The position numbers and the translations under genes are program-made. Positions 23,674 through 41,129 of a DNA stretch of 64,000 bases are shown here, one piece after another (the first letter of the stretch is position 1; the number at the start of each line of letters is the position of its first letter). Source of the DNA: Halorarum halobium (GTDB taxonomy: Archaea; Halobacteriota; Halobacteria; Halobacteriales; Haloferacaceae). The notes beneath the pieces were generated by a model. The model did no database searches. It had not been told where the DNA came from and saw nothing but the letters and a program-made list of their open reading frames with translations. The DNA lies in NCBI RefSeq assembly GCF_032116555.1, contig NZ_CP134949.1:744001-808000 (forward strand), given 5' to 3'.

Positions 23674-24204
23674 ATGAAGCTGCGTCTCCTCACACTTTCC
23701 CTGATACTCTTTACTAGCCTTTCAGCGGCTCAAAGCTCTAACAACACGACTATCGACTCGAGTCCTGGGCTGGTGAAGGCTGATTCTCCGATCTACAGCT
23801 TGGACGTAGCCTTCGATAACATGCTTCAGACGGCGGGCATGGTATCTGCCGGCGATGTGGCGGTCGAACGTGCGTCGGAGGTAGCCGTAGCTCACCGGAG
23901 AAACCACTCCGCTGCTGCAAGTGAAGCTCTGGATCAGCTGCAGGTCGTCGCCCAGGAAGCGAATAACCGGAACCGAGAGAAACTGCAGAGGGCAGGGGAG
24001 ATCCTGAACCAGGTGAAGAAACAAGTTCCCGAGCAAGCGCAGAAGGGAATTAAGACGGCTCTCCAGAACGTGGAACGGGCGAAGAACCGTGTTCCGCAAG
24101 AGTTCACCGCTGACAGTGGCGGAGCACTTCCTGATATCGAGGTGCCTGGCGGAGCCGGTGACCGAGATCTCGATGTGCCCGGCGGAAACACGAGTGGGAG
24201 GTGA
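23674..24204 (+). CDS. secreted DUF5667-like helical protein
   Basis: Signal peptide; PGLVKADSPIYSLDVAFDN...AVERASE; TTTATAAA about 30 nt upstream. Confidence 0.7.
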   Translation: MKLRLLTLSLILFTSLSAAQSSNNTTIDSSPGLVKADSPIYSLDVAFDNMLQTAGMVSAGDVAVERASEVAVAHRRNHSAAASEALDQLQVVAQEANNRNREKLQRAGEILNQVKKQVPEQAQKGIKTALQNVERAKNRVPQEFTADSGGALPDIEVPGGAGDRDLDVPGGNTSGR

Positions 24205-24215
24205 CTCTCTAGTCG

Positions 24216-24821
24216 GTGGGACTGCGAGCGATACTCAGTAAGATTGTTAGCAGCAGGTTGTTCCCGCCGTATCTCCTCTACAAGCTATTGGAGAAGCTGA
24301 ATCTACTGTATATCGCGTGGTTCCTTGTCCTGGTACTGCCGTCGCTGATCGGCACCTACGCCAACCTGATCGACAAAGGCGTACACCCACTGATTTCGGT
24401 ATTCGCTACGGTCGGCATCCAGTTCGGTGGCCAGGCGATTGAGGTGTGGAACGCTTTCTGGCAGATACAGGGAGCTTCTGTCGGTGAAGCATTAGTGATT
24501 TTCTTCGGGTCGGCAGCGTCGATTCTCCGCTTTCTCTGGTACTACTACGTGTTCAACTGGATTGCGGATAACATGGAGCCGACGGTCAGCAACTTCTCGA
24601 AATTTATCGTCGGCACGTTCCTGCTGGCGATGTCGACGATTATCGCGTTGATGGTCGACTTGTATGCTCTCCCGGCTGGAACTCACTTATCCGGGTATAC
24701 CTACGTCTTGGCGAATCCGGGGATCGTCCTTGATCCGTTAAGTCAGATCGTAGTTCAGTCGCCTGCCGAGCCTGCTGAGGCTTTAAATAGAACACTGAAC
24801 AATTCCAGTGTAGGTGGATAG
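24216..24821 (+). CDS. polytopic membrane protein
   Basis: 201 aa, about 4 TM. Confidence 0.75.
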   Translation: MGLRAILSKIVSSRLFPPYLLYKLLEKLNLLYIAWFLVLVLPSLIGTYANLIDKGVHPLISVFATVGIQFGGQAIEVWNAFWQIQGASVGEALVIFFGSAASILRFLWYYYVFNWIADNMEPTVSNFSKFIVGTFLLAMSTIIALMVDLYALPAGTHLSGYTYVLANPGIVLDPLSQIVVQSPAEPAEALNRTLNNSSVGG

Positions 24822-24824
24822 TTT

Positions 24825-25358
24825 TTGCCGGAAGACGATGTCCTTGAGCAGCAGGTATTCAGGATAGACGACGACTGGAGTAGGAGTGACGAAAAACAGA
24901 AGGAAGACGTGATGAACGCTGTCCTGAGAAAGCGGGAACGCGCTTTGCGGAAAGCCCGTGAAGCAATGGACCAACGGTACAGTCGGGGAACGAACGCCGG
25001 CACGGAGATCGGCTGGCTATACTTCTTTGCCTACGAAAATCTGAATGCTGCCGTCAACCAGGCCAACCTGAATGGCGACGGCGTCTCCGAGAAACTGGAG
25101 GACCTGGTTCACGAGTTCCACGAAGCGGTGAAGATCTACGACCGAGAAGGCGAGGAAGTCGTGAAGGAATACACGCCGCATGATATGCTAAAATGGAGCC
25201 AGGAAGCCGAGGAAATCCGGCGTATGCCTGCTCCAATGAGGAAGGTGATGGATGAGAATGGGGAGAAGATCCACCAGTTGATCGGGTTCGCTTACAGCGG
25301 AACTGAGGCTGTCACCGAAGGCAGCAGCGAGGACGAAAATCGGGGACCTGAAGGGTGA
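24825..25358 (+). CDS. hypothetical helical protein
   Basis: 177 aa, TTG start after AGGTGG. Confidence 0.7.
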   Translation: MPEDDVLEQQVFRIDDDWSRSDEKQKEDVMNAVLRKRERALRKAREAMDQRYSRGTNAGTEIGWLYFFAYENLNAAVNQANLNGDGVSEKLEDLVHEFHEAVKIYDREGEEVVKEYTPHDMLKWSQEAEEIRRMPAPMRKVMDENGEKIHQLIGFAYSGTEAVTEGSSEDENRGPEG

Positions 25359-25365
25359 CTAATCG

Positions 25366-28056
25366 CTGGCCTTAGCCACTCCGTTCAAGTTCCTGAATGA
25401 CCTCGAAGACGTTCTCACCAGCTACAATGAGGGACAGAAGGAGAACTCTGAGAACAACAATCTCGTCGTACCTGGCATCCCTCGATCGGGGAAAGGACAG
25501 GTCACGGGCTGGGCGAAGGAGCACGGACTGGCTGGTGACCACATCAAATTATTCGAAACACATGCTACCAAGATATCGCACCTGGCGGAGATCTTCCAGT
25601 TTCTCTTGCCGAACGGGTTCTTCCTGAACCGGGATTCCCGGGACATCGTCGAGTCGATTCAGGAGCAACTGGAGCGAGGTTCGTATCGAGAGCCAGTCCT
25701 CGACACCAGTGACTTGGACGAATTATTGGAGTTGCATGAGTTGGCTCCTCCGCCGCAGCGTATCGAGAAAATCGACGAGTTCCTCGAGAAAGAGTCGAAC
25801 CATAGTCTCTGCCAGAGACTGGAAGAAGCGAAGGAGAAGCAGGTGGGGATCAAGAACCGGCTGGAGCAGATCCATAGTCAATGCTATACTAATCCGAACG
25901 TCCCGGACACCTTCAGGAAGAACTACACGGACGGCTTGAACCGGAGCTTCGACATCCAGGTCTTCACACCGATCTCCCGGAATATGCCGACTGGAGAGGT
26001 CCCAGACTTTTTCGAGCCGTTCGGAGTACCGGTCGACGCCTTTGAGCGGTACGAGAACCTGAAGTGGGGCTTGCAGATCGTCCACGGGGATTCCAGCTAC
26101 GGCGACTACAAATACATCTATAGAAGGGTCGTCGACGTCGGGGACTCCAGCTTCGAGGACCTGAAGAACGTCGGAGAGCTCAAGGACAGCAAGCACTCCG
26201 TGGAAAGAGAGTACGGCGACGGCCAGACCTTCACCGTCAGCCGTGTAGTCAACGAGGAGAACGCCCGGAAAGCGTTTGAGAGAGACTGGGAGGACACGTT
26301 CGGTACTCAGGGCGTAGTCTGCTCTTCCGGCTTCGACCACACATTACGGGAACGCTTGAAGGAGGCGATGCTTTCAGACGAGCCGGATATCATCTGTCTC
26401 TACACCGGTTTTCTCAGCGATGAGACGGTGCGGAAGTTCGTCATGGTGTATTTCATGGAGACGATGTTCGATATCGTCCGCAACCTTTCCGGCAGTGAGC
26501 TCAAGAAATTGGACCGGCAGTTCATCGCGTCGATGATCGAGGCCCAAGAAGTGGTGAAGAAGTCGACGAAGGACACCAAACTCAGTACAGCGGACAAGGT
26601 GTTCAACCGGTTCGTGAAGGAGGCGATGAACGACTCCGGGCACTACAACTTCAACTTCTGGGTTGACTCCAAGCCCAGTGAGACGCATCAGATCCTGTTG
26701 TCGAAGGCGTCGAAGCGTATCATCACCCGGATGAACAAGGAGGACGTCGAGTCCTGGTACAACGGCGACACTCGGAAGAAGCTGAAGAAGGCTTTCAGCG
26801 ACGAACGGAACTACGCCTCGCTCGACGGCAGGTATCCGGAGTTCGGGTACGGTTTCATCTACATGAGTGACGGCATCGTCGAGTGGGATACCACGAGTGG
26901 TTTGAAGACGTACGGTCACCGGTTGCCGTGTCCGCGGATGTGTGTTCAAGATCCATTGGACGAGATTTCGAACAGTGACTGGAGTTTCTTCACCGAGGAA
27001 CTCGGCATGGATTCGATGCGTTTCCAGGAGTACCAGGACGCACTTTTCAAGGAGGACTGGGAAGCCAGCGCCGAAGCGTACATTGAAGAACGGGAGCGCA
27101 AGGAGCGTGAGAAGCAGAAGGAGAAGGAGGAAGAGGAGAAGACGAAGAAGGAGATGCGGAAGTCCGTGGCCTGCTCCAAGCTCGAGGCCAAGGTCTCCGA
27201 CATGGATGAACTGCCGTCGAAGTGGAAGCCGACTCACGAGGAGATCCTTGCGGAGATGAAGGAGGAAGACCTGGTGCCGGACGATTTCGAGCGCCGGACC
27301 ATCGAGAACTACACAAAGGAACGCCGTAGCGACTTGGAGGAGAATTTCAACAAGGGCAGCGACGAGGATATCGATGTCGAGCAGGTAGCGAATGAACTGA
27401 AAACCTTGGAGAGGAACGGGAAGCCCGCCTTTGTCTACGGACCGAAGTCAAAATCAGATAAGGAGATCTTGGCGAAGCAGTACATCCTGAAGAACCACGA
27501 TGTCGACGAGAGTGTTGCCGAGGATAAAGCGGAGGAGGCGACGAGTATCGCTCTCATGGACTTGAAACTGGAGGGCATCATCGACGGAAATTATCGGGTC
27601 AAAGACGAGTACGAGGATCCGGAGGAGTACAAGGCGATTATGGGTATGGGCCGGGGTGAAGCATCGGAGCAGGAATCACAGGAAGAAGAGCAGTCAGAGA
27701 CAGAGGATTCTGAGGACAACGAAACGGAGTATGTGGAGGTCCGGATAACTTCTGAAGTTCCAGAGGTCAGAGGCACTGACTTGGATGTCTACGGCCCATT
27801 TGAGAAGGACGAGGTTGTGGAAGTTCCGGAGGACAACGCGGATATTCTCGTCAATAGAGGAAAGGCAGAGTTCGTAGAGAACGGAGAATCAGAGAATGAG
27901 ACTTCTGAAGACGATGCTGAGGAGTTACAGGAAGCTCCGGGTGAAGAATGGCTGTGTACGTGTGGATCCTTCAACGAGGAAGACCGGGCCGTATGCCGGA
28001 ACCCGAAGTGTACGAAGACCTTTGAAGAAGTCGAGGAAGAACAGAGTTCAGAGTAG
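25366..28056 (+). CDS. divergent HerA/VirB4-like P-loop ATPase with C-terminal GINS B-like domain and RanBP2-type Zn finger
   Basis: In-frame extension to CTG 25366 supplies NLVVPGIPRSGKG (Walker A-like); FIASMIEAQE (Walker B-like); C-terminal VRITSEVPEVRGTDLDVYGPFEKDEVVEVPEDNADILVNRGKAE and WLCTCGSFN..C..PKC. Confidence 0.72.
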   Translation: MALATPFKFLNDLEDVLTSYNEGQKENSENNNLVVPGIPRSGKGQVTGWAKEHGLAGDHIKLFETHATKISHLAEIFQFLLPNGFFLNRDSRDIVESIQEQLERGSYREPVLDTSDLDELLELHELAPPPQRIEKIDEFLEKESNHSLCQRLEEAKEKQVGIKNRLEQIHSQCYTNPNVPDTFRKNYTDGLNRSFDIQVFTPISRNMPTGEVPDFFEPFGVPVDAFERYENLKWGLQIVHGDSSYGDYKYIYRRVVDVGDSSFEDLKNVGELKDSKHSVEREYGDGQTFTVSRVVNEENARKAFERDWEDTFGTQGVVCSSGFDHTLRERLKEAMLSDEPDIICLYTGFLSDETVRKFVMVYFMETMFDIVRNLSGSELKKLDRQFIASMIEAQEVVKKSTKDTKLSTADKVFNRFVKEAMNDSGHYNFNFWVDSKPSETHQILLSKASKRIITRMNKEDVESWYNGDTRKKLKKAFSDERNYASLDGRYPEFGYGFIYMSDGIVEWDTTSGLKTYGHRLPCPRMCVQDPLDEISNSDWSFFTEELGMDSMRFQEYQDALFKEDWEASAEAYIEERERKEREKQKEKEEEEKTKKEMRKSVACSKLEAKVSDMDELPSKWKPTHEEILAEMKEEDLVPDDFERRTIENYTKERRSDLEENFNKGSDEDIDVEQVANELKTLERNGKPAFVYGPKSKSDKEILAKQYILKNHDVDESVAEDKAEEATSIALMDLKLEGIIDGNYRVKDEYEDPEEYKAIMGMGRGEASEQESQEEEQSETEDSEDNETEYVEVRITSEVPEVRGTDLDVYGPFEKDEVVEVPEDNADILVNRGKAEFVENGESENETSEDDAEELQEAPGEEWLCTCGSFNEEDRAVCRNPKCTKTFEEVEEEQSSE

Positions 28057-28470
28057 TTCTTTACCCTCTCCGTGCTTCAGTCCTAACACGATGAAGGGCC
28101 GAGCCTCTTGGAATTTCTCGGTTGGCTCGATCTCTTCGCCCAGTTTTTTCTTCCAGTTGTGGGTGAAGACGAAGATGTCCGTGCCGTCGCGTTTTCCTAC
28201 GTGCTCTAGTATTCCTTCGTCCTCAAGGCTGTCCAGGAATCTGTATTCCCAGTCCCCGCCTTTTGTGCCGATGATGTCGGTGAGTTCGTATTTGCTGTAG
28301 ACTCTGTCGCTGTCCGAGAAGTCTTGGTTATTCCTTACAGGTTCAGTGAACGGGAGTTTATCTTTGGCCCAGGTGATCCCCCCGGTCCATAGCTTCCAGC
28401 TCTCAGGGTCGTGTTCGACCAGATTTTTAATATATTGGTATGCCTTCGGGTTTTCCCCGTCGATCTCCAT
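28048..28470 (-). CDS. winged-helix-like protein
   Basis: YSKYELTDIIG...FLDSLEDEGILEHVG. Confidence 0.6.
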   Translation of the reverse strand: MEIDGENPKAYQYIKNLVEHDPESWKLWTGGITWAKDKLPFTEPVRNNQDFSDSDRVYSKYELTDIIGTKGGDWEYRFLDSLEDEGILEHVGKRDGTDIFVFTHNWKKKLGEEIEPTEKFQEARPFIVLGLKHGEGKELL

Positions 28471-28628: not shown

Positions 28629-29648
28629 ATGGGACATGGTAAGAAAATTGCAATTGCAGCTGGAGGACTCGGAGGTACAGCAGCTCTTCTCTTCGTACTG
28701 GCGATGATATTCGCTCCAGGTACAGTTACACCAGATCAGGGAAACGGAGATCAAGTCACACCGCCTGCACAGAACGGGACCGATACAACTGGTCCTTGGG
28801 ATAACCGTGCAGTGAAGAAGACCATCAAGCTGGAGGATCTGAATAGCAACGCAGTCAGCAGCGGTACAATCCACGTCTTTGCGGACAAGCCGACAGACAG
28901 CAGCGGAAACGTAGTCTGGGGCAACGAACGTGCGATCGAACCGTACTTCGGAACAAGTCAGGAGAAGGATCAGGTCAGTGTCTCCAGTTCGGAGACCACG
29001 CTGCAGTACGAACCAGGAACATACTTCCTGGCGATCGAGTCCAGCGGCCACTACACGGAGTTCGTGAAGCTGGAGATTCCAGACGGATCCAGCTACGGCG
29101 ACACCTCGCTTTCCGAGTACAATCAGGCACCAGAGATGGTGAACTTTGAACTGGCTCAGACCTACAGTCCGGCGCTTGAAGCTCTGGATGTAGGGGTCGA
29201 CAGTAACTCCACATCAATCGAGACGTGGAACGACGACTACACAGTCAAGCCTTCTGAAGGAAGCGAGTACCGTGCCTGGAAGATGGTTGTGCACACCGGA
29301 GACGTTGATCCGACAACTGACAGTGACAGTGACGGCAACCACGATGAAGGAATCAGGAAGGCGTACTTCGAGCTCTCCGGAGCAGCAAGTACCAAGAGTG
29401 TCGTGTTCAACCCGTCTAACGGGATTGACAAGCTGGGAAGCAACGACAAGGCAACCGTCAACATCGACGACGTCGTTGTAACGCCGGATAATCCGCTGAC
29501 AATCAGCTCATACCTGGTCACCTTTGAGACAAGCACTTCGGGTGCTTCGGACGGTGACGAGGTTCTGACGGACGGCGAGAATCCGTTTGACTTCCAGCTG
29601 TTCAGTGACACTGGAACTGGTACGTCCAAGACGGACGTGACAGCGTGA
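28629..29648 (+). CDS. N-terminally anchored beta-rich surface protein
   Basis: Strong GGAGGTGG SD, N-terminal TM, DSDSDGNHD possible Ca-binding loop. Confidence 0.8.
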   Translation: MGHGKKIAIAAGGLGGTAALLFVLAMIFAPGTVTPDQGNGDQVTPPAQNGTDTTGPWDNRAVKKTIKLEDLNSNAVSSGTIHVFADKPTDSSGNVVWGNERAIEPYFGTSQEKDQVSVSSSETTLQYEPGTYFLAIESSGHYTEFVKLEIPDGSSYGDTSLSEYNQAPEMVNFELAQTYSPALEALDVGVDSNSTSIETWNDDYTVKPSEGSEYRAWKMVVHTGDVDPTTDSDSDGNHDEGIRKAYFELSGAASTKSVVFNPSNGIDKLGSNDKATVNIDDVVVTPDNPLTISSYLVTFETSTSGASDGDEVLTDGENPFDFQLFSDTGTGTSKTDVTA

Positions 29649-29801: not shown

Positions 29802-30668
29802 ATGGAGACCGAGGATGGACTGGAGCTGCTATCTGGAGTCCTGATGTTCTTCTTCCTGACAATCGCTTTACCAGCCTTCCTGCTGTACGGCCTCGGAGCA
29901 GCTTCTGAACAGGCAAATCTAGTGAAGTACTTTTTCTACGGCGTCCTCGGGTTCTCCCCTTTACTGGTCAACTTCGCTACGGTGTTCCTCGAGAATCGAG
30001 GCTTCTTCGAGAAGCATCCTTCTCTCAAGGGCTTCCAGTACATCACGTTCCACAGCCCGGAGCAGACACCGCTCGGTCAAAAGTTTCCGAAGCTGGTTCA
30101 GGCGAAGGTGATGATCCCGCTGTTCATTGTTATCGCGTTGTTTTTCGGGATGCTGGTCAGCGTCAGTGGAACGTTTTCAGTCGGTACTCCGGACCTGGTC
30201 ACCGGCAGCATCTCGCCAGGCGCAGAACTTGGACTCGCCGTGGAGCCAGCGGTCTCCGCTGAAACCTTCTTCTTCAACGTCGGAATGTTACTCGGGCAGA
30301 TCGGCTTCATCTACCTGTTCCTGTTCAGTCGAGGTGTTTCGCCGCGTTGGAGCTATATCTGGAGCCACGTATTGTCGTGGATCTTGACGTCGATTGAGTT
30401 CCTGTTCTACCACAGCTTCAGGTACGGGACTCAGGAAACCAGTCAAGCCTCCGTGTTCCTGCTGGGCTTGATTACCAACGGGTTCACGGCGTTGACGCAT
30501 TCGATTATCCCGGCGTACCTGATTCACGGCTCCGGGAACTTCTTTGACAAAGCCTCAGAGGCCGGGATATTTACTTCGGACGTAGCGGTGCTGATAGCAG
30601 TGGTTGGAACCCTGATTTCCGGTGTCGTCCTCGTGCATTTCCTTTTCAAGGAGTTGGGAGGTGAGTAA
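29802..30668 (+). CDS. CPBP (Rce1/Abi)-like intramembrane peptidase, divergent
   Basis: About 7-8 TM; SAETFFF, FLFYH and SIIPAYLIHGSGN match CPBP motifs but EExxxR is degenerate. Confidence 0.65.
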   Translation: METEDGLELLSGVLMFFFLTIALPAFLLYGLGAASEQANLVKYFFYGVLGFSPLLVNFATVFLENRGFFEKHPSLKGFQYITFHSPEQTPLGQKFPKLVQAKVMIPLFIVIALFFGMLVSVSGTFSVGTPDLVTGSISPGAELGLAVEPAVSAETFFFNVGMLLGQIGFIYLFLFSRGVSPRWSYIWSHVLSWILTSIEFLFYHSFRYGTQETSQASVFLLGLITNGFTALTHSIIPAYLIHGSGNFFDKASEAGIFTSDVAVLIAVVGTLISGVVLVHFLFKELGGE

Positions 30669-30677: not shown

Positions 30678-31280
30678 ATGGATCTTAAACGGGTAGTAGC
30701 TGTTGCGGTCGCTGTAATCTTCTTATCCGTGTTTTTCTTCGTCGCCACGTTGTACGTTCTGCAGTACTTGAGTTTCGGGACTCGTGGCCTGGTCCAGGAC
30801 GTGAGGATCGAGGCTGGGATGGGTCCACGGAGAACTGTCGACACCGTCTACATCCAGAAGAGTGACCTAGAAACGCTGCAGGAGGCGTACACCCCGGAAC
30901 GAGAGAAGCAGTGGATAGCCAATATCAACGAATCAGAGGTGATGACGGACCTGACGCTGACCGGAGTAGGGAATCTGACTCACGTCACCGGTAGTTACGA
31001 CAGTAGTAAGGAACCGGAGGTCCTGATTCACAGTCATAGGCCGAACGCTACGGGCCGTCTCTCTGGTTTCGACAAGGAGTGGCTGCGGAACGCTTCTCGT
31101 AAGGCGTTGAATCGGGGAGAAGAGAGGGAGGACTTGTACCGGATGAGCTGTATTCTTCACCGGAAGTGGCGATTCACTAAGCCACAGCTGTACTGCTACG
31201 CCAACCCGTTCATCTACAGGGATACGGAGGTTTCCGAGGGAGGATTTTTCAACCGGGTCAGCGTGACGGTTCTGGATTAG
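30678..31280 (+). CDS. membrane-anchored JAB/MPN-like metallopeptidase
   Basis: N-terminal TM; upstream Glu (EREK), then LIHSHRPNATGRLSGFD (HxH...SxxD). Confidence 0.65.
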   Translation: MDLKRVVAVAVAVIFLSVFFFVATLYVLQYLSFGTRGLVQDVRIEAGMGPRRTVDTVYIQKSDLETLQEAYTPEREKQWIANINESEVMTDLTLTGVGNLTHVTGSYDSSKEPEVLIHSHRPNATGRLSGFDKEWLRNASRKALNRGEEREDLYRMSCILHRKWRFTKPQLYCYANPFIYRDTEVSEGGFFNRVSVTVLD

Positions 31281-31310: not shown

Positions 31311-34300
31311 ATGGTGTCTCGAAAACATTTTTTCCTGTTAGCCTCGGCTCTACTCCTCCTCGCAAACGGTTCTGCTGCTAATATCCAGGTTGTTGGTCTT
31401 GAGGAAGATGGAATCAACACGACGTACACAGAGAACGGTATCCGGTTCACCACGGACTATCTGAACAAGACAGTCTCCTACAGAAAAGTCGTCAAACCAG
31501 ATAATTTGGCTACGAAAGACGGTGTACAGGTCAAGTCCAAGAGTAAGGGAGACGGAGATCTCCAGATCCAGTTCAGTTTCCAGGTTGCACAGGATTCGAA
31601 CTACACGTACCTACAGGGGAAGACGTTCTCAGGGGAGATCTCGTTGAAGAAGGGTGTTCTGAAGACAAACTTCGTCAATGGGTCTGTGACCAGTGACAAG
31701 GACGAGCGAATTAACATCAGCTCCGAGGCCCACTACGAGCACCTGATCTTAGATTATGAATTGATTGATGCTGGGACGCCGAAGAACATGACCCAAAATG
31801 TATACTCCGGAGAGGAGACCAGGAAAATCCCAGTCTCCGGCAGTGTAGAACAGATCTCCGCTTCCAAAGTCCAGCAGGCGATTACGAAAGACAATCTGTA
31901 CGAGAACCGGACGACAGAGAAACTGGTGATCGCATACGACCCACGTACTAACATCTCAGGTGTCGACTGGAACGGTTTGAACCACTCGCCTGCTTCAGCA
32001 AGTTACAACGAAGATATCGACCCGGAGCTGGTGGACGCAGGGATCACAACAGGCAGGCTCGACAATGCTTCTCAGTACGAGTTCAAGGTATACAACGTCA
32101 CATACCCTGCTGACAGTGAGAGAACTGTCAAGGTGAACTTCACACAGCCAGAATACAATCCCTTGACGGATAACCCGGAGAACTTCGAGTTCCAGTACTA
32201 CAGCTACATCATAGGTTCTGTAGCGACTTTTAAAACCAACACATCAGAAGATTTCCAAAAAGGAAACTTTCAAGGAACTATTTTAAGTAATGGTAAATTA
32301 TTCTCTCAGAACAGAACCAATTTCTATAATACAACCGGTACGGCTCAGGAATTTTCTGCGAACTTGCCTAATACGGTCTATACCGTGAAGATCAACGGGC
32401 CGGGAGGAGGAGGGCCGAGCGGAACTTATGACAGATATGATCCCGGAGGTTCTGGAGGATACGTTAAAGGAAATATCACAATCTCCAACGATCAAAATTG
32501 GGATATCTACGTTGGTGGTGCAGGAGGAGAATCAGAACACGGAGGCTATGGAGGATGGGGATACTACAACGGAGGTTATGGAGGAGGAGTCGGAAACACC
32601 CCAGCGACCGGCGCAGGGGGCGGAGGAGGTCTTTCAGCGATTGTATCCCCTCAAAGTCATATTATGGCAGCCGCAGGAGGTGGAGGGGGTGCAGGTGCTC
32701 AGTACCAAGTTTATGATATGTACGCAGGAGGTGGAGGAGGCGCAGGAGGCGGCCTCGGAGGAAACGCAGATAACTGTTGTAGTCAATCAGAAGACGGTTC
32801 CGGAGCTGGAGGAGGCAACTGGGGAGGAGATGGAGGAGATTCGCCCGCTGGCGGTGTAGGAGAAGCGGGAGGAGACGGACAAGGATTCTTCAATACGAGT
32901 TTCGGCTCATCAATAAACACCGTTACGGGCGGAGGAGCTGGAGAAGCAACTAAAGGAAACATTACAATAAGTTTCGATTCCAGTAAAAAGAATTATATAT
33001 CTAAAGTTTACTCAGTCCCCGAGAAAAAGATTTGGGATAATATAACAGTCTCAAATTTCAAGAAGAATGGTGGAACGATCACGATTTGGGTTAAAACCAG
33101 CAACGATGGTTTCTCCACGACTCTGGAGGAAGAGAAGATGAGTAGTTCGGAGCTTACAAGTTCGGGAACTCAAACGATCGACCTCGGGCTTACGCAGGGT
33201 GCTACGGACGTAAAATACAATATATCATACAGTAAAGGATCTTCGAGTCCTTCAATCGACAGTATCTCCTTGGACGGGAAAACTGCGAATAAGCCTCCAG
33301 AGATCACCGGTGTAAAATTCGTAGATAATCATAGAAAAGACGACACCCGGCTGAACTTCTCTCTCGACGATAAGGGCGAAAGCGATATCTCCGAGTTCAC
33401 AGGCATTGGCTCCGCATTATCCTTCACGAACTCGACTCTCCGTTCCAGTATTTCTATCCCGTTCAGTTCCACGGTCTCGATCTCTGATGTGAAGGGTGCG
33501 TCGGACAGCTTCGAGATTGATGTCTCTGAATCAGATACTGGAGTGCGTGAGGATGACTTCGGCCACTCGCTTTCGACACAGAGAGTCAACCGGACGGTTA
33601 CCATCTTCAACGACGCGGCCTCCAGTATTGACTATCAGCTTGTACTTGATCTCGCTGGAACAGTGGTACAGGGACAGTCTTGGAACGGTTCAATTCCTGG
33701 AACGGGTAGTGTCACGCATTCTGCAGTCGCTGAGTCGGACTGGATAACCGGAGAGACTCTGGGAACCTACAACAAGTACAGCGACGGCGACTTCAGCCAC
33801 GGTGAGGATACGCAGAGAATCCACAACAGAACCGAGTTAATCGTCGATAATCCACGCAGTTTCACGTTCCATGATGTCGACGTCTCCAGTACCTGCACTC
33901 AGGTCTCGACCACAGATATCGACTCTGGAAGTAACGTCCGAGCGACGATGGACTGCACCAGACCTGTTCACGTAATTGACGTAATCAATGAGTCAACCAG
34001 TTCCCTGTACGCAGACATCGGCTACAGTCACGACTTAGGTAAGCAAGGGTTGGCGAAGAACAAGACTCTGGCCGAAACGGAGGGATACGTCTTTACAGGT
34101 GTCAATGTTTCCGCGCCTTCCCTTCCGGGCTCTACGGTGAATGGTGGGATGCGAGAGGTCAACCTTTCCAGCAAAGAGTCGACGACGGAGATCTACAACG
34201 CGACCGGTGACTGGATACAGGATGAACAAGAGAAGCAGGAAGCGTTTGGACAAGACGTTTCCAGGGTCCACGACATCGATCAGCAGTACCTCTACAATCA

Positions 34301-35744
34301 GACGCGGCTTGTCGTGAATAATACACGCAGCTTCAGCTTCTCTTCCGTAGATATCAGCAATTCCTGCTCGGTTACTACCTCCGCAGACGTACCTGCAGGA
34401 GAGTCAATCGTCACCTCGTCCTGCAACAACGGGACAACCAGCGGAGACTGGGTCAGGAACGAGGCAAACCAGTCAACGGAGTACGCCTCCGGCCCCGTGA
34501 CAGTTGGGAAAGGCATCAACAAGTCGTTCACGGCATCCCAGTATGTCGAGGCGGCGAACGTCCGAACCAGTACAGATCTACGGGTCGACGTCGACTCATT
34601 GGTTTCGGAAGTTTCGGGTTGCTCTGTCGTGAACTCGACCCAGCAGACGTTCCCTGCAGATAGTGTCTCCAGCTTCACGTTCCACAAATCCTGCAGCCCA
34701 GGAAACCACTTGAACAGGACTCCGGTGACGAAGACTGAGGCGTCGGATTACTACAAGTACAGTATCGAGTTCGGCTTCCACGTTAACTCCAATCTTACTG
34801 AGGAGCAGGAGTTCCGGTACGCGGTGAAGACGAAGTGGGCTGATAACTGGAACAGCCGTGACCCGACCGAGACAGAAGCAACCATCGACGGCAGCAGCAA
34901 GGACATCCAGGTCGAAGAACAGGTGATCGACGGAACCGAGTACATCGTATTCGTCATCGGAGAAAACCATACGAACTCCTCGATTCACGCCGGAACCCAC
35001 TCGGCCACGTTGACTTACTACGAGTCGAAGAGTCAGGGAACGACTTCCGGTGGAGGATCCAGTGGCGGCAGCACAACGGTCGTAGTCGGCTCCAACAGCA
35101 AAACCACTGTAGAGAATGTGACCAGCCCAGAGTACAACTGGACGGTCTCAGCCATCACCTCGGAGGACGACAGGACCTTCCAGCTCTCAGGCTACCCTGG
35201 ATCCAGCTTCGAGAAGTACGTAGTCGTCAGGAACACGGGGGACAGCAACGTCACCTTGAACATTGACTGCGTCTCCAGAGGCGACTCGTGTAGATGGGTG
35301 AATCTCTCCGTCGACCGGGTCATCCTGAACAGGAACTCGTTCAGCAAGAAGACAGTGACAGTGAACGGGACGATCCCGGAGACCTTCGACGGAGAGGAGT
35401 CGCCGGCGCGTTTCAGTATCCGTGTCTCCGATCCCCGGTTCAATGGAAGCCAGTCCACGGCGAAGGGCGTAGCCTATGTCGATTTCACCGTGAACTACAG
35501 TCCGGTTCTCGGCCCGGCACTGGATGTTGCTAAGAAAATCTTTGAGTGGAGGGAACTGGAGTCTCCGGTTCCGTGGGGTCACTCTGTTCCGTACCCGTTC
35601 TTCATCGTGCCGCCCCTGTTCTCGCTCCTTGTTGTGGCGGCTGGTTCGTTCGTGGAGTGGCTCGGGCCGTGGGACAGAACCTACCCGACTGTGAAGTGGT
35701 CAGCAGCGGTGCTCGTGTTCCTGATAGTCTTCATTTTCGGGTGA
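31311..35744 (+). CDS. large surface glycoprotein/adhesin with glycine-rich domain and C-terminal TMs
   Basis: 1477 aa; signal peptide; GPGGGG..GGSGGYVKG..IYVGGAG Gly-rich domain; internal repeats (H..Q..N.T.L.V.N.RSF; DWI/DWV); two C-terminal TM. Confidence 0.88.
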   Translation: MVSRKHFFLLASALLLLANGSAANIQVVGLEEDGINTTYTENGIRFTTDYLNKTVSYRKVVKPDNLATKDGVQVKSKSKGDGDLQIQFSFQVAQDSNYTYLQGKTFSGEISLKKGVLKTNFVNGSVTSDKDERINISSEAHYEHLILDYELIDAGTPKNMTQNVYSGEETRKIPVSGSVEQISASKVQQAITKDNLYENRTTEKLVIAYDPRTNISGVDWNGLNHSPASASYNEDIDPELVDAGITTGRLDNASQYEFKVYNVTYPADSERTVKVNFTQPEYNPLTDNPENFEFQYYSYIIGSVATFKTNTSEDFQKGNFQGTILSNGKLFSQNRTNFYNTTGTAQEFSANLPNTVYTVKINGPGGGGPSGTYDRYDPGGSGGYVKGNITISNDQNWDIYVGGAGGESEHGGYGGWGYYNGGYGGGVGNTPATGAGGGGGLSAIVSPQSHIMAAAGGGGGAGAQYQVYDMYAGGGGGAGGGLGGNADNCCSQSEDGSGAGGGNWGGDGGDSPAGGVGEAGGDGQGFFNTSFGSSINTVTGGGAGEATKGNITISFDSSKKNYISKVYSVPEKKIWDNITVSNFKKNGGTITIWVKTSNDGFSTTLEEEKMSSSELTSSGTQTIDLGLTQGATDVKYNISYSKGSSSPSIDSISLDGKTANKPPEITGVKFVDNHRKDDTRLNFSLDDKGESDISEFTGIGSALSFTNSTLRSSISIPFSSTVSISDVKGASDSFEIDVSESDTGVREDDFGHSLSTQRVNRTVTIFNDAASSIDYQLVLDLAGTVVQGQSWNGSIPGTGSVTHSAVAESDWITGETLGTYNKYSDGDFSHGEDTQRIHNRTELIVDNPRSFTFHDVDVSSTCTQVSTTDIDSGSNVRATMDCTRPVHVIDVINESTSSLYADIGYSHDLGKQGLAKNKTLAETEGYVFTGVNVSAPSLPGSTVNGGMREVNLSSKESTTEIYNATGDWIQDEQEKQEAFGQDVSRVHDIDQQYLYNQTRLVVNNTRSFSFSSVDISNSCSVTTSADVPAGESIVTSSCNNGTTSGDWVRNEANQSTEYASGPVTVGKGINKSFTASQYVEAANVRTSTDLRVDVDSLVSEVSGCSVVNSTQQTFPADSVSSFTFHKSCSPGNHLNRTPVTKTEASDYYKYSIEFGFHVNSNLTEEQEFRYAVKTKWADNWNSRDPTETEATIDGSSKDIQVEEQVIDGTEYIVFVIGENHTNSSIHAGTHSATLTYYESKSQGTTSGGGSSGGSTTVVVGSNSKTTVENVTSPEYNWTVSAITSEDDRTFQLSGYPGSSFEKYVVVRNTGDSNVTLNIDCVSRGDSCRWVNLSVDRVILNRNSFSKKTVTVNGTIPETFDGEESPARFSIRVSDPRFNGSQSTAKGVAYVDFTVNYSPVLGPALDVAKKIFEWRELESPVPWGHSVPYPFFIVPPLFSLLVVAAGSFVEWLGPWDRTYPTVKWSAAVLVFLIVFIFG

Positions 35745-35754: not shown

Positions 35755-36027
35755 ATGGTGTTCAGCGGGCACAAAGACGAGCAGATTCTGAAACTGCTGC
35801 TTTTCACTCTGTTCACGGTACTGCTGGTGCTGACGGTTATCGGTTACTTCGTTGACCGGTATTCCGAGTACAGGTGCGGGCCTGATGAGTTCCTTGCACT
35901 GGATTTCGAGTGCCACAGCGAGTTCGACGCGATCCAGGTCCCGGCGACCGCGTCAACGGCTTGTGGAGAAGGTCAAGTGTTGACCGGTGGAAATCGGTGT
36001 GTCTCTATCAGCGAACCTCCAGATTAA
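35755..36027 (+). CDS. small TM protein with four Cys
   Basis: One TM then CGPDEF..C and CGEGQV..C repeats. Confidence 0.7.
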   Translation: MVFSGHKDEQILKLLLFTLFTVLLVLTVIGYFVDRYSEYRCGPDEFLALDFECHSEFDAIQVPATASTACGEGQVLTGGNRCVSISEPPD

Positions 36028-36066
36028 AGACGCTCTCTTGGCTCGTCTACTGTAACGAGGAGTCCG

Positions 36067-37503
36067 ATGCCGAGGATACTGACCAAAGGCTCCAGATCCG
36101 GCGTAGAAGATGATTACGCTGGCTGGAGCGACGAGGAAAACCTCAAACACTACAATATCGCGTTCTACGACCTGCTGGACTTGGAGAACCGGAAATACGA
36201 AGTCGTTCATCCTTGGTTTGATCTCGAGGATGCAGTGCATTTCCCGAGTCGGGACGACGTGGTCCAGTTCCTGTTCGGCGGCAACGACCTCGTGATACGG
36301 TTGCCAGAGCATCAAGAAGTAGAGCTTCGAGGAGAGGACCGAGAAGGGAATACCGAGAGGTACAGTTGCGACCTGTTTGAGTGGCTTCCTTTCTACGTCG
36401 GCCTGAACGACGGAGAGGAAGGATCGGATTTAATCGAGGTACGTGACGGGTTTGAGGACTGGGAACCGTGCTTTGCCAACGACTTCGAGTGGGAGGTCGT
36501 CCTTCAAAGAATTGCACAGCGAAGCAGGTACCGTTCAACCCCGTATTCCGATCCGCGTCCTCGTCCCTCGAAACCGGGGATGAGCCAGCAGGTACAGTCA
36601 CGGGCAGCCCCGAGATCCAGTGATTACGGCCCGAACGTGGAAGTTGAGGTTATTGCCGAGGAGAACGTTGGCCGGACGATTGCTGCAGAAGTCGGTCTTG
36701 TTGCGGATGACGATGATGGAGATCCTGTTCATTCGGATGGGTCGGTTTACCTGATTCCGGCGAACTCCTCGAAGAAGTTCGACGAGTTCACACAGGACAT
36801 CCTTGTGGAGGTTTTCGATGTCGACGTCGAGCAGGTCCCGGAATGGCTGGATGACTACCAGGTGCCGGGAGAGGAAGATATACTGAGCGAGATAGAGAGC
36901 TTGGAGAGCCAGGTCTCCGAGTTGGAGCAGCAGGTGGAGAGGGCGGAGTGGTTCCGCCAGCTGTTGTTTGCGAACGACGAGGATTACAGCGATTACGGGT
37001 TAGAGAAGCCTGTCAGGGAGGCGTTCCGGGAGATGGGTCTCACCGTTGAAGGTGAGAAGCCTGGTTTCCGGGACGGCGGGATAGTGCTTGACGACCAGAC
37101 GATTATACTGGAGGTCACGGGGCGGAAGAGAGGTGTGAGGTTGGGGAAGGTCCAGAAGCTAGAGCGCCATGTGGAAGATGCTGAGGAGGAAGGCTACGGT
37201 CAGGACCGGTCTGGGCTTCTGGTTTACAACCCGTTCCGGAATGAGGATCCGGAGAGCCGGTCGTTGAATCCGAACAATTTCCGGGAGGAATTGGAGGATC
37301 GAGGCTTCAAGTTCATCACCACCTATCAGCTGTACCAGATGCTATGTGCGTACGAGAGGGGAGAGATCGACACGGATGACGTGGTTGAGAAGTTAACCGG
37401 TGAGGATACTATCATCGAGTTCTCCGGCTCCGTGGGTCATGGCGGTGATACGCTTCGGGGCAGGATTGATTCGGTCCGGCAGCGCCTGGACAGGCTGTTC
37501 TGA
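36067..37503 (+). CDS. hypothetical protein with coiled coil and C-terminal restriction-endonuclease-like fold
   Basis: LEKPVREAF..MG...RDGGIVL...IILEVTG resembles a PD-(D/E)xK core with Lys replaced. Confidence 0.55.
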   Translation: MPRILTKGSRSGVEDDYAGWSDEENLKHYNIAFYDLLDLENRKYEVVHPWFDLEDAVHFPSRDDVVQFLFGGNDLVIRLPEHQEVELRGEDREGNTERYSCDLFEWLPFYVGLNDGEEGSDLIEVRDGFEDWEPCFANDFEWEVVLQRIAQRSRYRSTPYSDPRPRPSKPGMSQQVQSRAAPRSSDYGPNVEVEVIAEENVGRTIAAEVGLVADDDDGDPVHSDGSVYLIPANSSKKFDEFTQDILVEVFDVDVEQVPEWLDDYQVPGEEDILSEIESLESQVSELEQQVERAEWFRQLLFANDEDYSDYGLEKPVREAFREMGLTVEGEKPGFRDGGIVLDDQTIILEVTGRKRGVRLGKVQKLERHVEDAEEEGYGQDRSGLLVYNPFRNEDPESRSLNPNNFREELEDRGFKFITTYQLYQMLCAYERGEIDTDDVVEKLTGEDTIIEFSGSVGHGGDTLRGRIDSVRQRLDRLF

Positions 37504-37818
37504 TTACTGTTCAGAGAGTTCGTCGACGTCCATATCGAAGTGCAGTGAACCGTCCTCCAGCCTTCCCAAGTCCTCTTTCTCGATGTTGGTGCCTGGGATT
37601 TCGCAGAAGCAGGGGGCGCAGAACGCGGCTCCGGTCGACGGGTCCTCATACCAGGTCCGTTCCGCGTTCAGCAAGAGTTGGGTGTTCACTTCTTCGCCGG
37701 CGTCGATCTCAGCTACCGGGAAGTAGAGACGTGCCCCGCCGTCTTCCCACTGGAGTTTATCTTGGAGTTCGACTTCTTCGGTGTCGCCGCATTCCGAGCA
37801 GGTGAGCTGGCTGGGCAT
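37504..37818 (-). CDS. small zinc-binding protein
   Basis: CSECG and FCAPC pairs. Confidence 0.7.
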   Translation of the reverse strand: MPSQLTCSECGDTEEVELQDKLQWEDGGARLYFPVAEIDAGEEVNTQLLLNAERTWYEDPSTGAAFCAPCFCEIPGTNIEKEDLGRLEDGSLHFDMDVDELSEQ

Positions 37819-37898
37819 GGAGTGACTGTAGCAGGCTGGTAAGATAAACCCGGTTCCCGCCCATCGATTTTAAAAATACATCTTGGTAATTCTTGAGT

Positions 37899-38219
37899 AT
37901 GGATTTTCCCGAGTTCGTCAAGGAGCATCCAGCGATATCTGTAACTCTGTTTCTCGCCCTGATATTAGTTCTCGGCTTTGCTGCGGTTATCTACAGTCAG
38001 GGCACAGTTATCGGAGGCTCCAGCAGCCCATGTAGCTGGCAGGAAGCAGTCTACCCAGGAAACGATACCCCGATAGAGACGAAGGAGGACTTCCGGGACT
38101 ACGTAGAGGATAAAGGAGCGACTGTTCCTGACGGTCTCCAGCTTGAGTACAGGGACGGAGGAAATCTGTACTACAAGGCTCCGTGTGGATCAGTTGGAGG
38201 AGGTGGTACTTCGCAGTGA
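37899..38219 (+). CDS. small anchored exported protein coupled to fsx1
   Basis: TTTAAAAA at ~37868, one TM, two Cys, GTGA overlap with fsx1. Confidence 0.75.
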   Translation: MDFPEFVKEHPAISVTLFLALILVLGFAAVIYSQGTVIGGSSSPCSWQEAVYPGNDTPIETKEDFRDYVEDKGATVPDGLQLEYRDGGNLYYKAPCGSVGGGGTSQ

Positions 38220-40105
38220 AACGTGCCGCCTCACTGATTCTCTGCCTGGTTCTCTTCACAGGTGTTTCCTCGGCCACGGTGACCAGCGTCGACTCAATCA
38301 CCTACACTCAGACAAGCACCTTATTCGACGGGACATTATTCGCAATCTCGGTGGCATCGGATCAGGCCACCGATAAAATCGACATCCGCCTAGACAAGGA
38401 CCAGATGAGTCAGTCGGTTGAAGGCGATGTTCAGCAGGACTTGACCATTGACATAACATCTCAGAACAACCATCTGCGCTATTCTACGACGCCGAGTTCC
38501 GAGCTCCGTAAAATCCAGACAGTGGTCCCGTACCACGAGACAGGATTCTATTCTAAGGAGGAAGCGATTCAGGCTATCAAAAACCGGTGCTATGACCTGA
38601 ACGGGAACGGTGAGGGAAGCGGCCATTATGCCTGGAAAGCAGGTTCTTGGAGTTACGAGATCTACTGTTTCCAGCAGTCAACGTACCTGGGAACGCCAGC
38701 GTATCTGGATAATCCTGAGGAGCATTTCCAGACTCGGTTTGAGCTACAGGCAGGCGGCAAAACGGTTCAGTCTGCGACCTTGTCCAATGGAGATGCCGGT
38801 ACAGGAGTGATCTCTAATCTCGGTAGTCATGCTAAGGTTCGATGGAACGGAAACCTGGATACTGGAGCTCCGCAGCCGAATGTTGGCAGAGTCTACGCAC
38901 TCCACGCGAACAGGTACAGCGGCAGCTGGAGGATTATCAGCCAGCAGGGTTACAATGATTACAAGAACTACTTGGAGAACTCGGCGCACGATACCATTCA
39001 GGACTGGGCAGCCGGGATGAATACTGGTTGGCAGGCCGCGGAGTGGTTGAATGACCGTGCCTGGAGTGCTGCTGAAGTCGATACGTCGAGCGACCTGGCC
39101 TATACTACTGTTGCGGATACTTCGTTCAAGTCGGGGGCGTTCACCTACGATACAGAGGATCTTCTGGTCTATCCGATGTTCACGGTGTACGTCGATGTCG
39201 GGGAGAACGGTTACATCGAGATCTCCAAGCCAACCGGCGAACCAGAAATCGTGTCGAAAAGCTCAACGCGAATCGAGGAGCTTTCGACCGGTACAATCTC
39301 TTCCGTAGTGAAGAACGTTGGAGATGGTCAGGGTAGCTTCTCAGCTCGTATCACGGACTGCAGTAACGGCTTCACGTTCACGGATAGTCAGAGGACGAAG
39401 ACGGTGTACCCTGGTCAGACTGTTTCCTATAGCTTCGATGTCTCCTTCCAGTCAACCAGTACCGATAAGCAGGAGATCTCCGGAAGTTGTACCGTCCAAG
39501 TTGAGGATACTGGAAGCGGAGCAAGCACGTCGACGACGATAGATGTCACCGGTGTCCAGGCTTCGCAGTGTGAGGCAGGGACTCAGTCGATCAAGGTGAA
39601 CAGCGATGGCCTCTACGAGATTTACGAGTGCAAGCAGAACGAGCAAGGCAAGTTCCTGGTCAAGACCTGTGCCGAAGGTGAGAAAGCCTACGCTCAGGGC
39701 GATGGCACCTTTGCCTGTGAGAAACCAGACAACGGAGGCGGCGGAACAGGTCCTGGAGTATCGAATCCGCTTGGCTTCCTTTCTGGATTGTTCGGAGGAT
39801 CTGACTCAGGTGGAATCCTGGAACAGATCCACTTCGCGCTCTCACTGATAGCCGGAGTCCTGTCGGCAGTCGTCGGTTACAAAGGAGTCCGGTGGGTTGA
39901 CGGGGAATACCTGGTCAGAGGCAGTTTCAAGCCGTTGAAGAACAGGAATCTCTCCCGAGTCAAGAAAGGAAGAAAGCCGATCGGAGTACTCGGTGGACTT
40001 CTGGCCCTGGTCATGGGTACGTGGCTGGCGTTGCAGGTGCCGCTACTTGTCCAGTTGATCGTTATACTTGGGACCGGCTTCGTGATGTGGAAGACTCCAC
40101 TTTAG
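38216..40105 (+). CDS. fsx1: archaeal fusexin Fsx1 (HAP2/GCS1-like class II fusogen)
   Basis: 629 aa; SATVTSVDSITY, CYDLNGNGEGSG, YEIYCFQ, QSATLSNGDAG, WNGNLD, YPMFTVYVDVGENGYIE.SKPTGEP, VKNVGDGQGSF match the Fsx1 ectodomain as I recall it; 8 ectodomain Cys; three C-terminal TM. Confidence 0.93.
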   Translation: MKRAASLILCLVLFTGVSSATVTSVDSITYTQTSTLFDGTLFAISVASDQATDKIDIRLDKDQMSQSVEGDVQQDLTIDITSQNNHLRYSTTPSSELRKIQTVVPYHETGFYSKEEAIQAIKNRCYDLNGNGEGSGHYAWKAGSWSYEIYCFQQSTYLGTPAYLDNPEEHFQTRFELQAGGKTVQSATLSNGDAGTGVISNLGSHAKVRWNGNLDTGAPQPNVGRVYALHANRYSGSWRIISQQGYNDYKNYLENSAHDTIQDWAAGMNTGWQAAEWLNDRAWSAAEVDTSSDLAYTTVADTSFKSGAFTYDTEDLLVYPMFTVYVDVGENGYIEISKPTGEPEIVSKSSTRIEELSTGTISSVVKNVGDGQGSFSARITDCSNGFTFTDSQRTKTVYPGQTVSYSFDVSFQSTSTDKQEISGSCTVQVEDTGSGASTSTTIDVTGVQASQCEAGTQSIKVNSDGLYEIYECKQNEQGKFLVKTCAEGEKAYAQGDGTFACEKPDNGGGGTGPGVSNPLGFLSGLFGGSDSGGILEQIHFALSLIAGVLSAVVGYKGVRWVDGEYLVRGSFKPLKNRNLSRVKKGRKPIGVLGGLLALVMGTWLALQVPLLVQLIVILGTGFVMWKTPL

Positions 40106-40119
40106 AGGTGATCTCAAGG

Positions 40120-40425
40120 TTGAAGAAGCAGATCTGGTTTCTGGGAGTCGTGGTTTCACTGGTTTCTCCTGTCGTCGGGGTTGGGTACAGGAAGGCAGTG
40201 AACCGTACGTTGAATCCAGGCAGCGTAGAGCAGGTCCGAGTCTTGTATGAGGCGATGGGTTGGCACGTCGCCGGGTTTCTCGCCCTGCCCTTACTCGGTT
40301 TGCTGGCTTACGGATGGAAGCTGGGTGAATGGAAACGTGAGAATTACTGGCTCCTCATGATTTTGGGGATAGTCCTCAGTGTAATAGTACTACTAGGATT
40401 TCCGTTCGTATTCCTGCATCTCTGA
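40120..40425 (+). CDS. small 3-TM protein after fsx1
   Basis: TTG start after GAGGTGA. Confidence 0.7.
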   Translation: MKKQIWFLGVVVSLVSPVVGVGYRKAVNRTLNPGSVEQVRVLYEAMGWHVAGFLALPLLGLLAYGWKLGEWKRENYWLLMILGIVLSVIVLLGFPFVFLHL

Positions 40426-40481
40426 AGCTGTAGAGCTCGTCTCGGCAGTAAGTTTTTCTGACTGTTAAACGATGTTACTGT

Positions 40482-41129
40482 ATGCAGGCCACGGAACGCG
40501 CAGTAGAAAGATTCCGAGACCGGTTCACGAGGCTTTTCGCCTGGTTCTATCATAGCCCTGTGGAGTCAGTCGGCAGCTTCAACGGGTACAGTGATGAGGA
40601 AGATGTGTACTGGTGTTCCAGTGATTCAGCGGCGTTCGGTCAGGCTACGCCGGTCGGCACGATTATCCTGAACAAGCAGCGGATGGAGGACCTGTCCGAG
40701 GAAGCTTCTGAACTTGTGTATCGGCATGAGCAGGGGCATCTCAATCGCCTCCCGGTTTTCAGAGGCTTGTTCTGGGGGATGGTGATCAACGGAGCAGTCG
40801 GGATCTACTACTTCCTACAGAGTCTCGGATACTCGCTTCTGATCCCGTTCGGTGTCCCTGTGGAGCCGGTGGCGATGCTGGCAGGAGTCTCCCTGATGCT
40901 CGTCCTGCTTATGGCGGTTGCTGCCCGTCTTGAGGAGGTGGCAGCTGATCTCCACGCACTCCAGAGTCTTGGTGAGGAAGCGTTCCTTGATGCTTACGAC
41001 GAGATCTCTGACGAAGGCAGTGATTCGCTTCACGTCCGGATTGTGAACCGGATTCAGTACTCTGACCCGGAGGACGTGGTCAAGGTCCATCGTTTCCTGG
41101 TCTGGGCGAAGTCTCTCTATCCAGCATAG
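40482..41129 (+). CDS. M48-like membrane zinc peptidase
   Basis: VYRHEQGHL (HExxH), two TM, EEVAAD (ExxAD). Confidence 0.8.
   Translation: MQATERAVERFRDRFTRLFAWFYHSPVESVGSFNGYSDEEDVYWCSSDSAAFGQATPVGTIILNKQRMEDLSEEASELVYRHEQGHLNRLPVFRGLFWGMVINGAVGIYYFLQSLGYSLLIPFGVPVEPVAMLAGVSLMLVLLMAVAARLEEVAADLHALQSLGEEAFLDAYDEISDEGSDSLHVRIVNRIQYSDPEDVVKVHRFLVWAKSLYPA

Follow-up and report, generated by a model that had tools for sequence, protein, structure and literature searches.

The 64,000-nucleotide stretch of the Halorarum halobium chromosome analysed here (the window; NZ_CP134949.1, positions 744,001 to 808,000) contains, at 23674-41129, a block of genes that includes fsx1, encoding fusexin 1. Comparative sequence analysis indicates that this block lies at the right end of a 97-kb integrated mobile element (IME) of the fsx1 kind and makes up most of its surface module. 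Fsx1 is an archaeal relative of the gamete fusogen HAP2. The element is a genuine intact member of a published kind, with a published, still hypothetical, transfer role; since Moi et al. (2022, PMC9259645, main text) have already proposed a fusion-dependent, conjugative-like mobilisation of fsx1 IMEs, the idea of transfer is not new. The present analysis contributes an integration hotspot in the box C/D RNA gene sR-tMet, a candidate Fsx1 companion, a corrected ATPase, and a map of core versus cargo genes. As to mechanism, we favour, at somewhat below even confidence, contact-dependent and relaxase-free transfer of the element circle through an Fsx1 bridge over three other explanations.

The element, its ends and its target gene

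In the following, G000 is the H. halobium genome, C1 its chromosome and C2 its 158-kb replicon; other G and L numbers denote the genomes and loci compared (L060 is Ga0207718_100100, L080 a contig of G306 and L020 a G268 contig). The element measures 96,965 bp and is enclosed by two identical 16-bp copies of an attachment (att) core, the right copy being the 3' end of a host gene that the insertion leaves whole:

41637-41652, no strand assigned: right att core, 16 bp; an identical copy at C1:688688 is the left end, and exactly two copies occur genome-wide
41637-41708, minus strand: host box C/D RNA gene sR-tMet, full length (Rfam RF02163, 80.5 bits against a gathering score of 50)

The G+C content of the element is 53.8%, compared with about 68% for the chromosome; the stretch at about 53% runs from C1:687 kb to 41.6 kb of the window, with a jump from 0.54 to 0.67-0.75 at 41637. 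The left end (C1:688688-690283) comprises the att copy, a small partner gene of 166 residues (aa) and a tyrosine integrase (Phage_integrase, E 1e-16), and farther inside are a Cdc6/Orc1 gene, a VirB4-like ATPase (515 aa), a 3'-truncated HerA/TrwB-like ATPase and defence-like cargo. The size (>50 kb), deviant G+C and tyrosine recombinase by which fsx1 IMEs are recognised are thus all present. The borders drawn in the initial annotation need revision, as they miss a 109-aa gene and the att site on the right, and leave outside a second cluster at 3051-6825.

By sequence, a tyrosine integrase with the small partner gene upstream of it inserted the element at the 3' end of sR-tMet, and the att repeats, the integrase and fsx1 are all intact. 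That the block is instead a relic, silent or in decay and now without function, is, in our view, very improbable: one gene of the G000 element is truncated, and both a deletion derivative (G268) and a remnant beside a broken integrase (G367) exist, but the open reading frames (ORFs) of the block are all open and full length compared with their homologs, the two att repeats match perfectly, and cysteines and motif positions are conserved.

The sR-tMet RNA, which we take to be a guide for pre-tRNA-Met, as its Rfam name also implies, has at its att end 12 bases that match, on the opposite strand, the anticodon-intron junction of pre-tRNA-Met (C1:907339-907488). Given this match within the att region, it may be speculated that the integrase could have switched target from tRNA-Met to its antisense guide. 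Among 401 Halobacteria genomes fsx1 was detected in 7 (10 rows, of which 3 weak partial ones, E 3-8e-4, were dropped), and sR-tMet borders the element in 5 of these (G000, G007, G291, G268, G306), the left att copy in G268 having 2 mismatches. The G185 element is probably also at sR-tMet, with G+C falling from 0.70 to 0.49 beside the gene, on a separate contig; the G170 element is not. L059 and L060, both in the supplement of PMC9259645, likewise end at sR-tMet, and neither att nor sR-tMet was found within the 18.8 kb of L062 examined.

An integrase match at E 1e-60 or better occurs in 46 of the 401 genomes (about 11%), 6 of which have fsx1, leaving 40 without it; the sR-tMet site therefore goes with the integrase rather than with fsx1. 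In 25 of the best 30 of 48 matches (L081-L110) the core, at up to 3 mismatches, lies 575-680 bp upstream of the integrase gene, and the small partner gene is beside the integrase in all of these best 30, related genomes not being independent in either count; among random host pieces the core was found in 9 of 300 at 4 kb and in 0 of 300 at 200 bp. By their recurrent arrangement, the att core, the 166-aa gene and the integrase are a module aimed at sR-tMet in many fsx1-free elements. The integrase of G007 and G291 is 85-95% identical and uses the same site across host families, which indicates recent horizontal spread. Against a phage collection it had distant bacterial matches only. Five exact att-core matches in IMG/VR were taken as chance, none having element genes close by.

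The arrangement is like that of the SNJ2-type integrase modules, for which the available text of PMC5861418 describes an integrase, a small partner gene and a short att core that move as a unit between elements otherwise unrelated, each integrase clade having its own kind of target. The SNJ2-type sites given there are tRNA 3' ends (with three intergenic exceptions) placed relative to the int 3' end, whereas the core described here lies some 600 bp upstream of int and coincides with the 3' end of a box C/D RNA gene, the two being compared by description. The integration targets in the available part of PMC8371274 are tRNA, coding and intergenic, with no small or guide RNA mentioned; integration into a guide-RNA gene by a clade in about 11% of sampled Halobacteria would thus add a target class not listed in that part. 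The exact att sites give direct access to excision and to empty-site recipients. Outside the left att copy (C1:687000-688687) there is about 1.7 kb of low-G+C DNA, which contains a lipoprotein-like ORF of 463 aa and may be left over from a different insertion into this hotspot; the host sequence flanking this att copy on the left had no match to the flank of the empty site in G381.

Intact fsx1, its candidate companion and the genes that travel with them

The block holds 16 genes, 14 on the plus strand, in agreement with the nearly one-sided layout first described. With the gene that follows it and the second cluster, the module is composed as follows:

3051-6825, both strands: second conserved membrane-gene cluster; 144 aa (minus); 74, 424 (signal peptide, C-terminal transmembrane (TM) segment), 233, 179 and 189 aa (plus)
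23674-24204, plus: secreted helical protein, 176 aa; matches in G007, G170 and L080
24216-24821, plus: polytopic membrane protein, 201 aa; G007 and L080; common to both element types
24825-25358, plus: soluble protein ahead of the ATPase, 177 aa; G007 and L080
25366-28056, plus: HerA/FtsK-fold ATPase, 896 aa, CTG start; PF22090 at E 1e-13; structure model
28048-28470, minus: 140-aa protein; matched in L060/L061 only
28629-29648, plus: N-anchored surface protein, 339 aa; transthyretin/CnaB-like domain and a second beta-sandwich
29802-30668, plus: CPBP/Rce1-like intramembrane protease candidate, 288 aa, from motifs
30678-31280, plus: TM-anchored JAB-motif protein, 200 aa, variable; analogous gene in type B
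31311-35744, plus: giant anchored surface protein, 1477 aa; N-terminal half variable, C-terminal half conserved
35755-37818, both strands: cargo genes of 90 aa (plus), 478 aa (plus) and 104 aa (minus)
37899-38219, plus: candidate Fsx1 companion, 106 aa; N-terminal TM segment, two invariant Cys
38216-40105, plus: fsx1, fusexin 1, intact, 629 aa, GTG start
40120-40425, plus: small membrane protein, 101 aa, downstream of fsx1 in type A; G268, G306, G007 (E 6e-5), L060 and L062
40482-41129, plus: M48-like HExxH membrane peptidase, cargo
41208-41537, plus: 109-aa coiled-coil protein of both element types; G268, G185, G291, G306, L060, L062 and L066

That fsx1 is intact, as initially proposed, is borne out by a reading frame free of internal stops, a score of 831.6 bits against NF053506 (NCBIfam; cut-off 650) and a match to PDB 7P4L (E 1.8e-150) that spans residues 37-542 in the 640-aa version of the ORF. 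A fusexin sequence is expected to have a signal peptide, ectodomain disulfides including those of domain IV, one to four C-terminal TM segments and a hydrophobic fusion loop between conserved Tyr residues. In agreement with this, the protein has 8 ectodomain Cys, all invariant, three C-terminal hydrophobic windows by hydropathy and an aromatic loop at the aligned fusion-loop position, 4 residues shorter than in 7P4L. A homolog has membrane fusion activity in baby hamster kidney (BHK) cells, according to the main text of PMC9259645. No match to fsx1 was obtained in plasmids or in a single-protein scan of the genome contig collection.

Directly upstream of fsx1, a TM-anchored gene of about 100 aa with two Cys is present in 12 of 13 non-duplicate loci with visible upstream DNA, a count that leaves out G306, L063 and L064, which end too early, and in which several metagenome loci are close kin; 5 of the 12 were recognised by position and pattern, 2 of those 5 by hidden Markov model too. 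Its stop codon overlaps the fsx1 start in G000 and L060. In the exception, G007, the N terminus of Fsx1 is the best non-member match of the companion profile (E 0.012 among 1119 proteins), which suggests that the companion anchor may there be fused onto Fsx1. Prediction of the companion-Fsx1 complex scored 0.57 against 0.00 for the best control, with contact agreement between runs of at least 81% and a partner predicted local distance difference test (pLDDT) value of at least 75. Of 157 solved pairs 116 attained this mark, as did 2 of 215 mismatched ones; because those at 0.60 or below comprise only 18 solved pairs but both mismatches, the support is weak, and the companion is at most weakly predicted to bind Fsx1. 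Class II viral fusogens have an accompanying protein, as in prM-E, E2-E1 and Gn-Gc. The likeness is one of layout, in that a membrane-anchored, disulfide-bearing protein is encoded immediately before a fusogen of the fusexin fold; the fsx1 companion, however, is a separate gene whereas the viral pairs are made as polyproteins, and it has only 67 extracellular residues and a weakly predicted binding.

Two types of fsx1 element can be distinguished, type A (G000, G007, G306, G268, L060, L062) and type B (G185, G291, G170, L063-L069), with L058, L059 and L061 kept out of the counts against double counting. Different subsets of the type-A members share the 896-aa ATPase family, the 339-aa immunoglobulin (Ig)-type protein, the CPBP protein and the 3051-6825 cluster; the cluster, with matches in G007 (6 genes) and G268 (4 genes), belongs to the same module as the block. 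Type B has a HerA ATPase of about 400 aa and positional analogues of the type-A genes where the DNA reaches. Sequence links across the types are provided by fsx1, the giant protein, the 201-aa (a remote match, hhalign 72.5%, E 3.3e-5), 176-aa and 109-aa proteins and the 106-aa gene. A HerA-type ATPase is near fsx1 on the same strand in G000, G007, G185, G291 and G170, on another contig in G306, and missing in G268. Comparison of neighbourhoods thus upholds in part the proposal of an fsx1-linked machine, since a core of surface, membrane and HerA-type proteins travels with fsx1, but not as one conserved machine. Nor is the block conserved as a whole: M48 is represented only by a 37-aa piece in L060, the three genes at 35755-37818 occur in L060/L061 only, and no other locus matches the JAB gene by sequence. 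On this distribution the M48 gene and the three genes are cargo, and the resulting core-versus-cargo map narrows the module to a few candidate genes.

The surface and polytopic membrane proteins first reported are present. The giant protein is anchored and adhesin-like as claimed, with a signal peptide, a Gly-rich domain (PF12810, E 1.1e-6), 48 N-x-S/T sites and two C-terminal TM windows. Two structure models were made, of the ATPase and of the 339-aa protein; for the latter the AlphaFold2 model (pLDDT 82) had a best structural match of Z 9.0 over 79 residues, with no capsid fold among its matches, and the family occurs in 3 of 401 genomes, two of them fsx1-positive and the third having a fragment beside a broken integrase. 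The three peptidase types reported in the block are confirmed at motif level: the CPBP/Rce1-like protein, below the Pfam cut-off at E 0.005, has single E, FxxxH and HxxxN motifs that are invariant across the type-A sequences (4 of 4) and look similar in type B by eye, where profiles were not significant; the JAB-like protein has HSHx8SxxD with an upstream E and no Pfam match; and the M48-like protein has HEQGH (Pfam E 0.004, below cut-off). The suggestion that they clear the envelope finds no support; the CPBP type is the sole recurrent protease and is intramembrane, which would suit maturation of the element's own surface proteins better.

The HerA-fold ATPase and how the element may move

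The frame of the ATPase begins with a CTG at 25366, behind a GGGTGA ribosome-binding-like site and 80 codons before the annotated start; the database protein (P0002) has 816 aa and lacks Walker A, which the 896-aa frame includes, and 22 of 24 other homologs align over at least 94% of residues 1-560. Apparent weak starts, CTG in G000 and TTG or ATA in relatives (G007, L080), explain the truncated database entries. Pfam and NCBIfam gave no ATPase match for the protein; its AlphaFold2 model (pLDDT 80) matches HerA in all of the top 6 Foldseek rows (E 1.5e-7 to 7.7e-7, TM-target about 0.35), so that of the original HerA/VirB4-like label the HerA part holds and the VirB4 part does not. The Walker A motif, GxxxxGK, is present in 22 of 22 rows covering that region, followed by G, N or D, and the type-A family occurs in 3 of 401 genomes, every one fsx1-positive. 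A GINS51-B domain and a C-terminal Cys4 ribbon are optional; the GINS51 C-terminal domain (window 27730-27870) is fused to the ATPase in 11 of 25 homologs and could tether it to the host replisome. A stand-alone 62-aa GINS51 copy was seen by eye in G007.

With respect to relaxase and capsid families, of which the initial annotation had recognised none, Pfam scans of 95 of 131 crude element ORFs found none, although divergent archaeal relaxases could escape; the PF03432 relaxase profile had no match in the whole genome, and PHROGs searches with 26 ORFs gave only weak coiled-coil-type matches and a partial ATPase match. Transfer through an Fsx1 bridge would then proceed as follows. On induction, the element would excise as a circle, replicate with the aid of its Cdc6/Orc1 gene and express the module; a partner cell would be gripped by the giant protein at the surface together with the Ig-type protein of 339 aa; Fsx1, with the two-Cys companion as a folding or trigger partner, would open a cytoplasmic bridge; and the HerA-fold ATPase, with no need of a relaxase, would bring the double-stranded circle to this bridge or drive it across. 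The CPBP protease would mature the element's own membrane proteins. The boundaries, target gene, intact genes, folds and co-occurrence are observed; excision, adhesion, host fusion and DNA movement we infer.

Several points weigh against this proposal. The main objection is that a naive recipient has no Fsx1: in the BHK experiments described in the main text of PMC9259645, Fsx1 fused cells only if both partners expressed it. Absence of the companion could account for the purely bilateral fusion seen with Fsx1 on its own. In vivo, HAP2 needs to be present on one of the two gametes only. The Walker B Asp is replaced in 24 of 24 aligned ATPase sequences, the Glu being invariant, so that ATPase activity is only predicted, and HerA-fold proteins also act in repair, defence and packaging. 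Profile comparisons between types A and B were not significant for the ATPase, Ig, CPBP and JAB proteins, and cross-type equivalence consequently rests on position and motifs. The 41.7-kb derivative in G268 retains fsx1 after a deletion of about 28 kb that took out the ATPase. The HerA/TrwB-like gene upstream of the block has 466 aa, compared with 663-694 aa in relatives, and lacks its 3' end, so that the G000 copy may be immobile. Lastly, a cassette of pilin, VirB6-like, VirB4 and VirD4 genes is found in 3 of 6 other cultured-genome elements (G007, G185, G291), in which T4SS-like (type IV secretion system) machinery could do the transfer instead.

The last point bears on the initial statement that no T4SS core is present, which is correct for the G000 copy but not for fsx1 elements generally. 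The pilin, membrane protein and VirD4 of the cassette had no tblastn match in the G000 element at E 1e-6, and the cassette had none in G268 or in the region obtained of G170, G306 being too fragmented; with no match in G000 and G170, fsx1 elements evidently occur without it. The ATPases of the G000 element are the HerA-fold protein of the block, the VirB4-like protein and the truncated HerA/TrwB-like protein, with no match to the cassette VirD4. It is conceivable that a T4SS-like cassette or a helper moves the family, the fsx1 module being cargo for carrier-carrier kin fusion in recombination or repair and the G000 copy being stranded. Bilateral fusion (PMC9259645, main text), the three cassette-bearing elements, the truncated HerA/TrwB-like gene and an integrase module shared with fsx1-free elements (40 of 46 integrase genomes) would all agree with this. 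We nevertheless consider it rather unlikely, as no relaxase was found in the G000 element (a search that did not extend to the elements with the cassette), the region obtained of G170 is likewise free of the cassette, the constant part is the fsx1 module and not the cassette, and a different VirB4-like gene (515 aa) remains in the G000 element.

The ATPase model also resembles viral packaging NTPases, namely STIV2 B204 (E 3.8e-4) and the PH1 ATPase (E 1.8e-3), and one distant relative has a weak Pox_A32 match. This raises the possibility that the module builds an enveloped particle, i.e. a vesicle or pleomorphic virion, for which the ATPase would recruit or pack the circle, the Ig and giant proteins would form the coat and Fsx1 would be the entry fusogen. 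The pR1SE-like plasmids, with a similar outline of surface proteins and a VirB4/HerA-like ATPase in the available text of PMC10818511, point the same way, as do the tRNA-like genes in the elements. So does a companion gene ahead of a class II fusogen, which is the viral layout. Pattern-seeded scans of IMG/VR viral contigs, however, found no relative of fsx1 or of the ATPase, the conserved block proteins have no convincing PHROG match, the 339-aa protein has no capsid fold, and fusion was bilateral; a particle is therefore in our judgement unlikely, if the strongest competitor to transfer through an Fsx1 bridge. A more inclusive formulation would make the fsx1 elements a system of transfer without a relaxase that spreads via a box C/D guide-RNA hotspot. 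In it a prokaryotic class II fusogen would work with a dedicated companion, as its viral counterparts do, and the companion would be the missing factor for one-sided fusion with naive cells or for action from an enveloped particle. As a whole we would hold this to be distinctly unlikely.

Related systems and further observations

The H. halobium element resembles the fsx1 IMEs described in the main text of PMC9259645 in its Fsx1 gene, its deviant-composition insertion of >50 kb, its XerC/D-like recombinase and its HerA/VirB4-like ATPases; it is collinear with L060, a contig in the supplement of that paper, and may itself be among the elements analysed there. It differs in a block ATPase that Pfam does not detect and whose protein-database entry is truncated, and in the lack of the pilin/VirB4/VirD4 cassette in the G000 copy. 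The available text of PMC9259645 gives no att site, target gene or companion gene, although its Supplementary Tables 3-4 (IME coordinates, gene content) may bear on both the target and the companion. Likened by description, the pR1SE-like vesicle plasmids (apHPVs) are also large haloarchaeal elements with uncharacterised surface-protein clusters and a VirB4/HerA-like ATPase; fusion is not mentioned in the available text of PMC10818511. Neither the sR-tMet target nor the companion gene nor a cassette-free copy was found in the open-access literature, where sites called intergenic could, by sequence, prove to be sR-tMet. Atlas searches returned only leads scoring below 0.9.

A number of smaller observations concern the surroundings of the module. 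The defence-like cargo (C1:730271-746923, i.e. to window 2923) includes an Argonaute-like ORF (NCBIfam E 3e-4), a 1535-aa FtsK-domain protein, a MAD7-like protein and a Druantia DruA-domain protein. Just before the block, at 20758-23621, are an XPB/Rad25-like helicase, a 160-aa ORF and a metallophosphoesterase, the helicase being likely captured cargo because its close match in G291 sits outside the G291 element. The deletion breakpoint of G268 (L020:1023-3917) is an in-frame fusion of the N terminus of the 233-aa protein with the C-terminal half of the giant protein. Distant relatives of the ATPase (P0070-P0102) have about 550 aa, are lysine-rich (non-halophile-like) and carry C-terminal helix-turn-helix domains, one having an intein. 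Separate VirB4- and VirD4-like genes at C2:65095-69610 could act as a helper in trans. Two neighbouring tRNA-like sequences lie in the element on the plus strand, at 20083-20256 (a cloverleaf fold whose anticodon loop holds an extra 100 nt or so) and at 20271-20386 (31.6 bits against Rfam tRNA), relaxed ARAGORN settings giving mostly false tRNA calls; the pair has no blastn conservation, yet tRNA-like sequences also occur in G007, as a cluster of three, and singly in G291.

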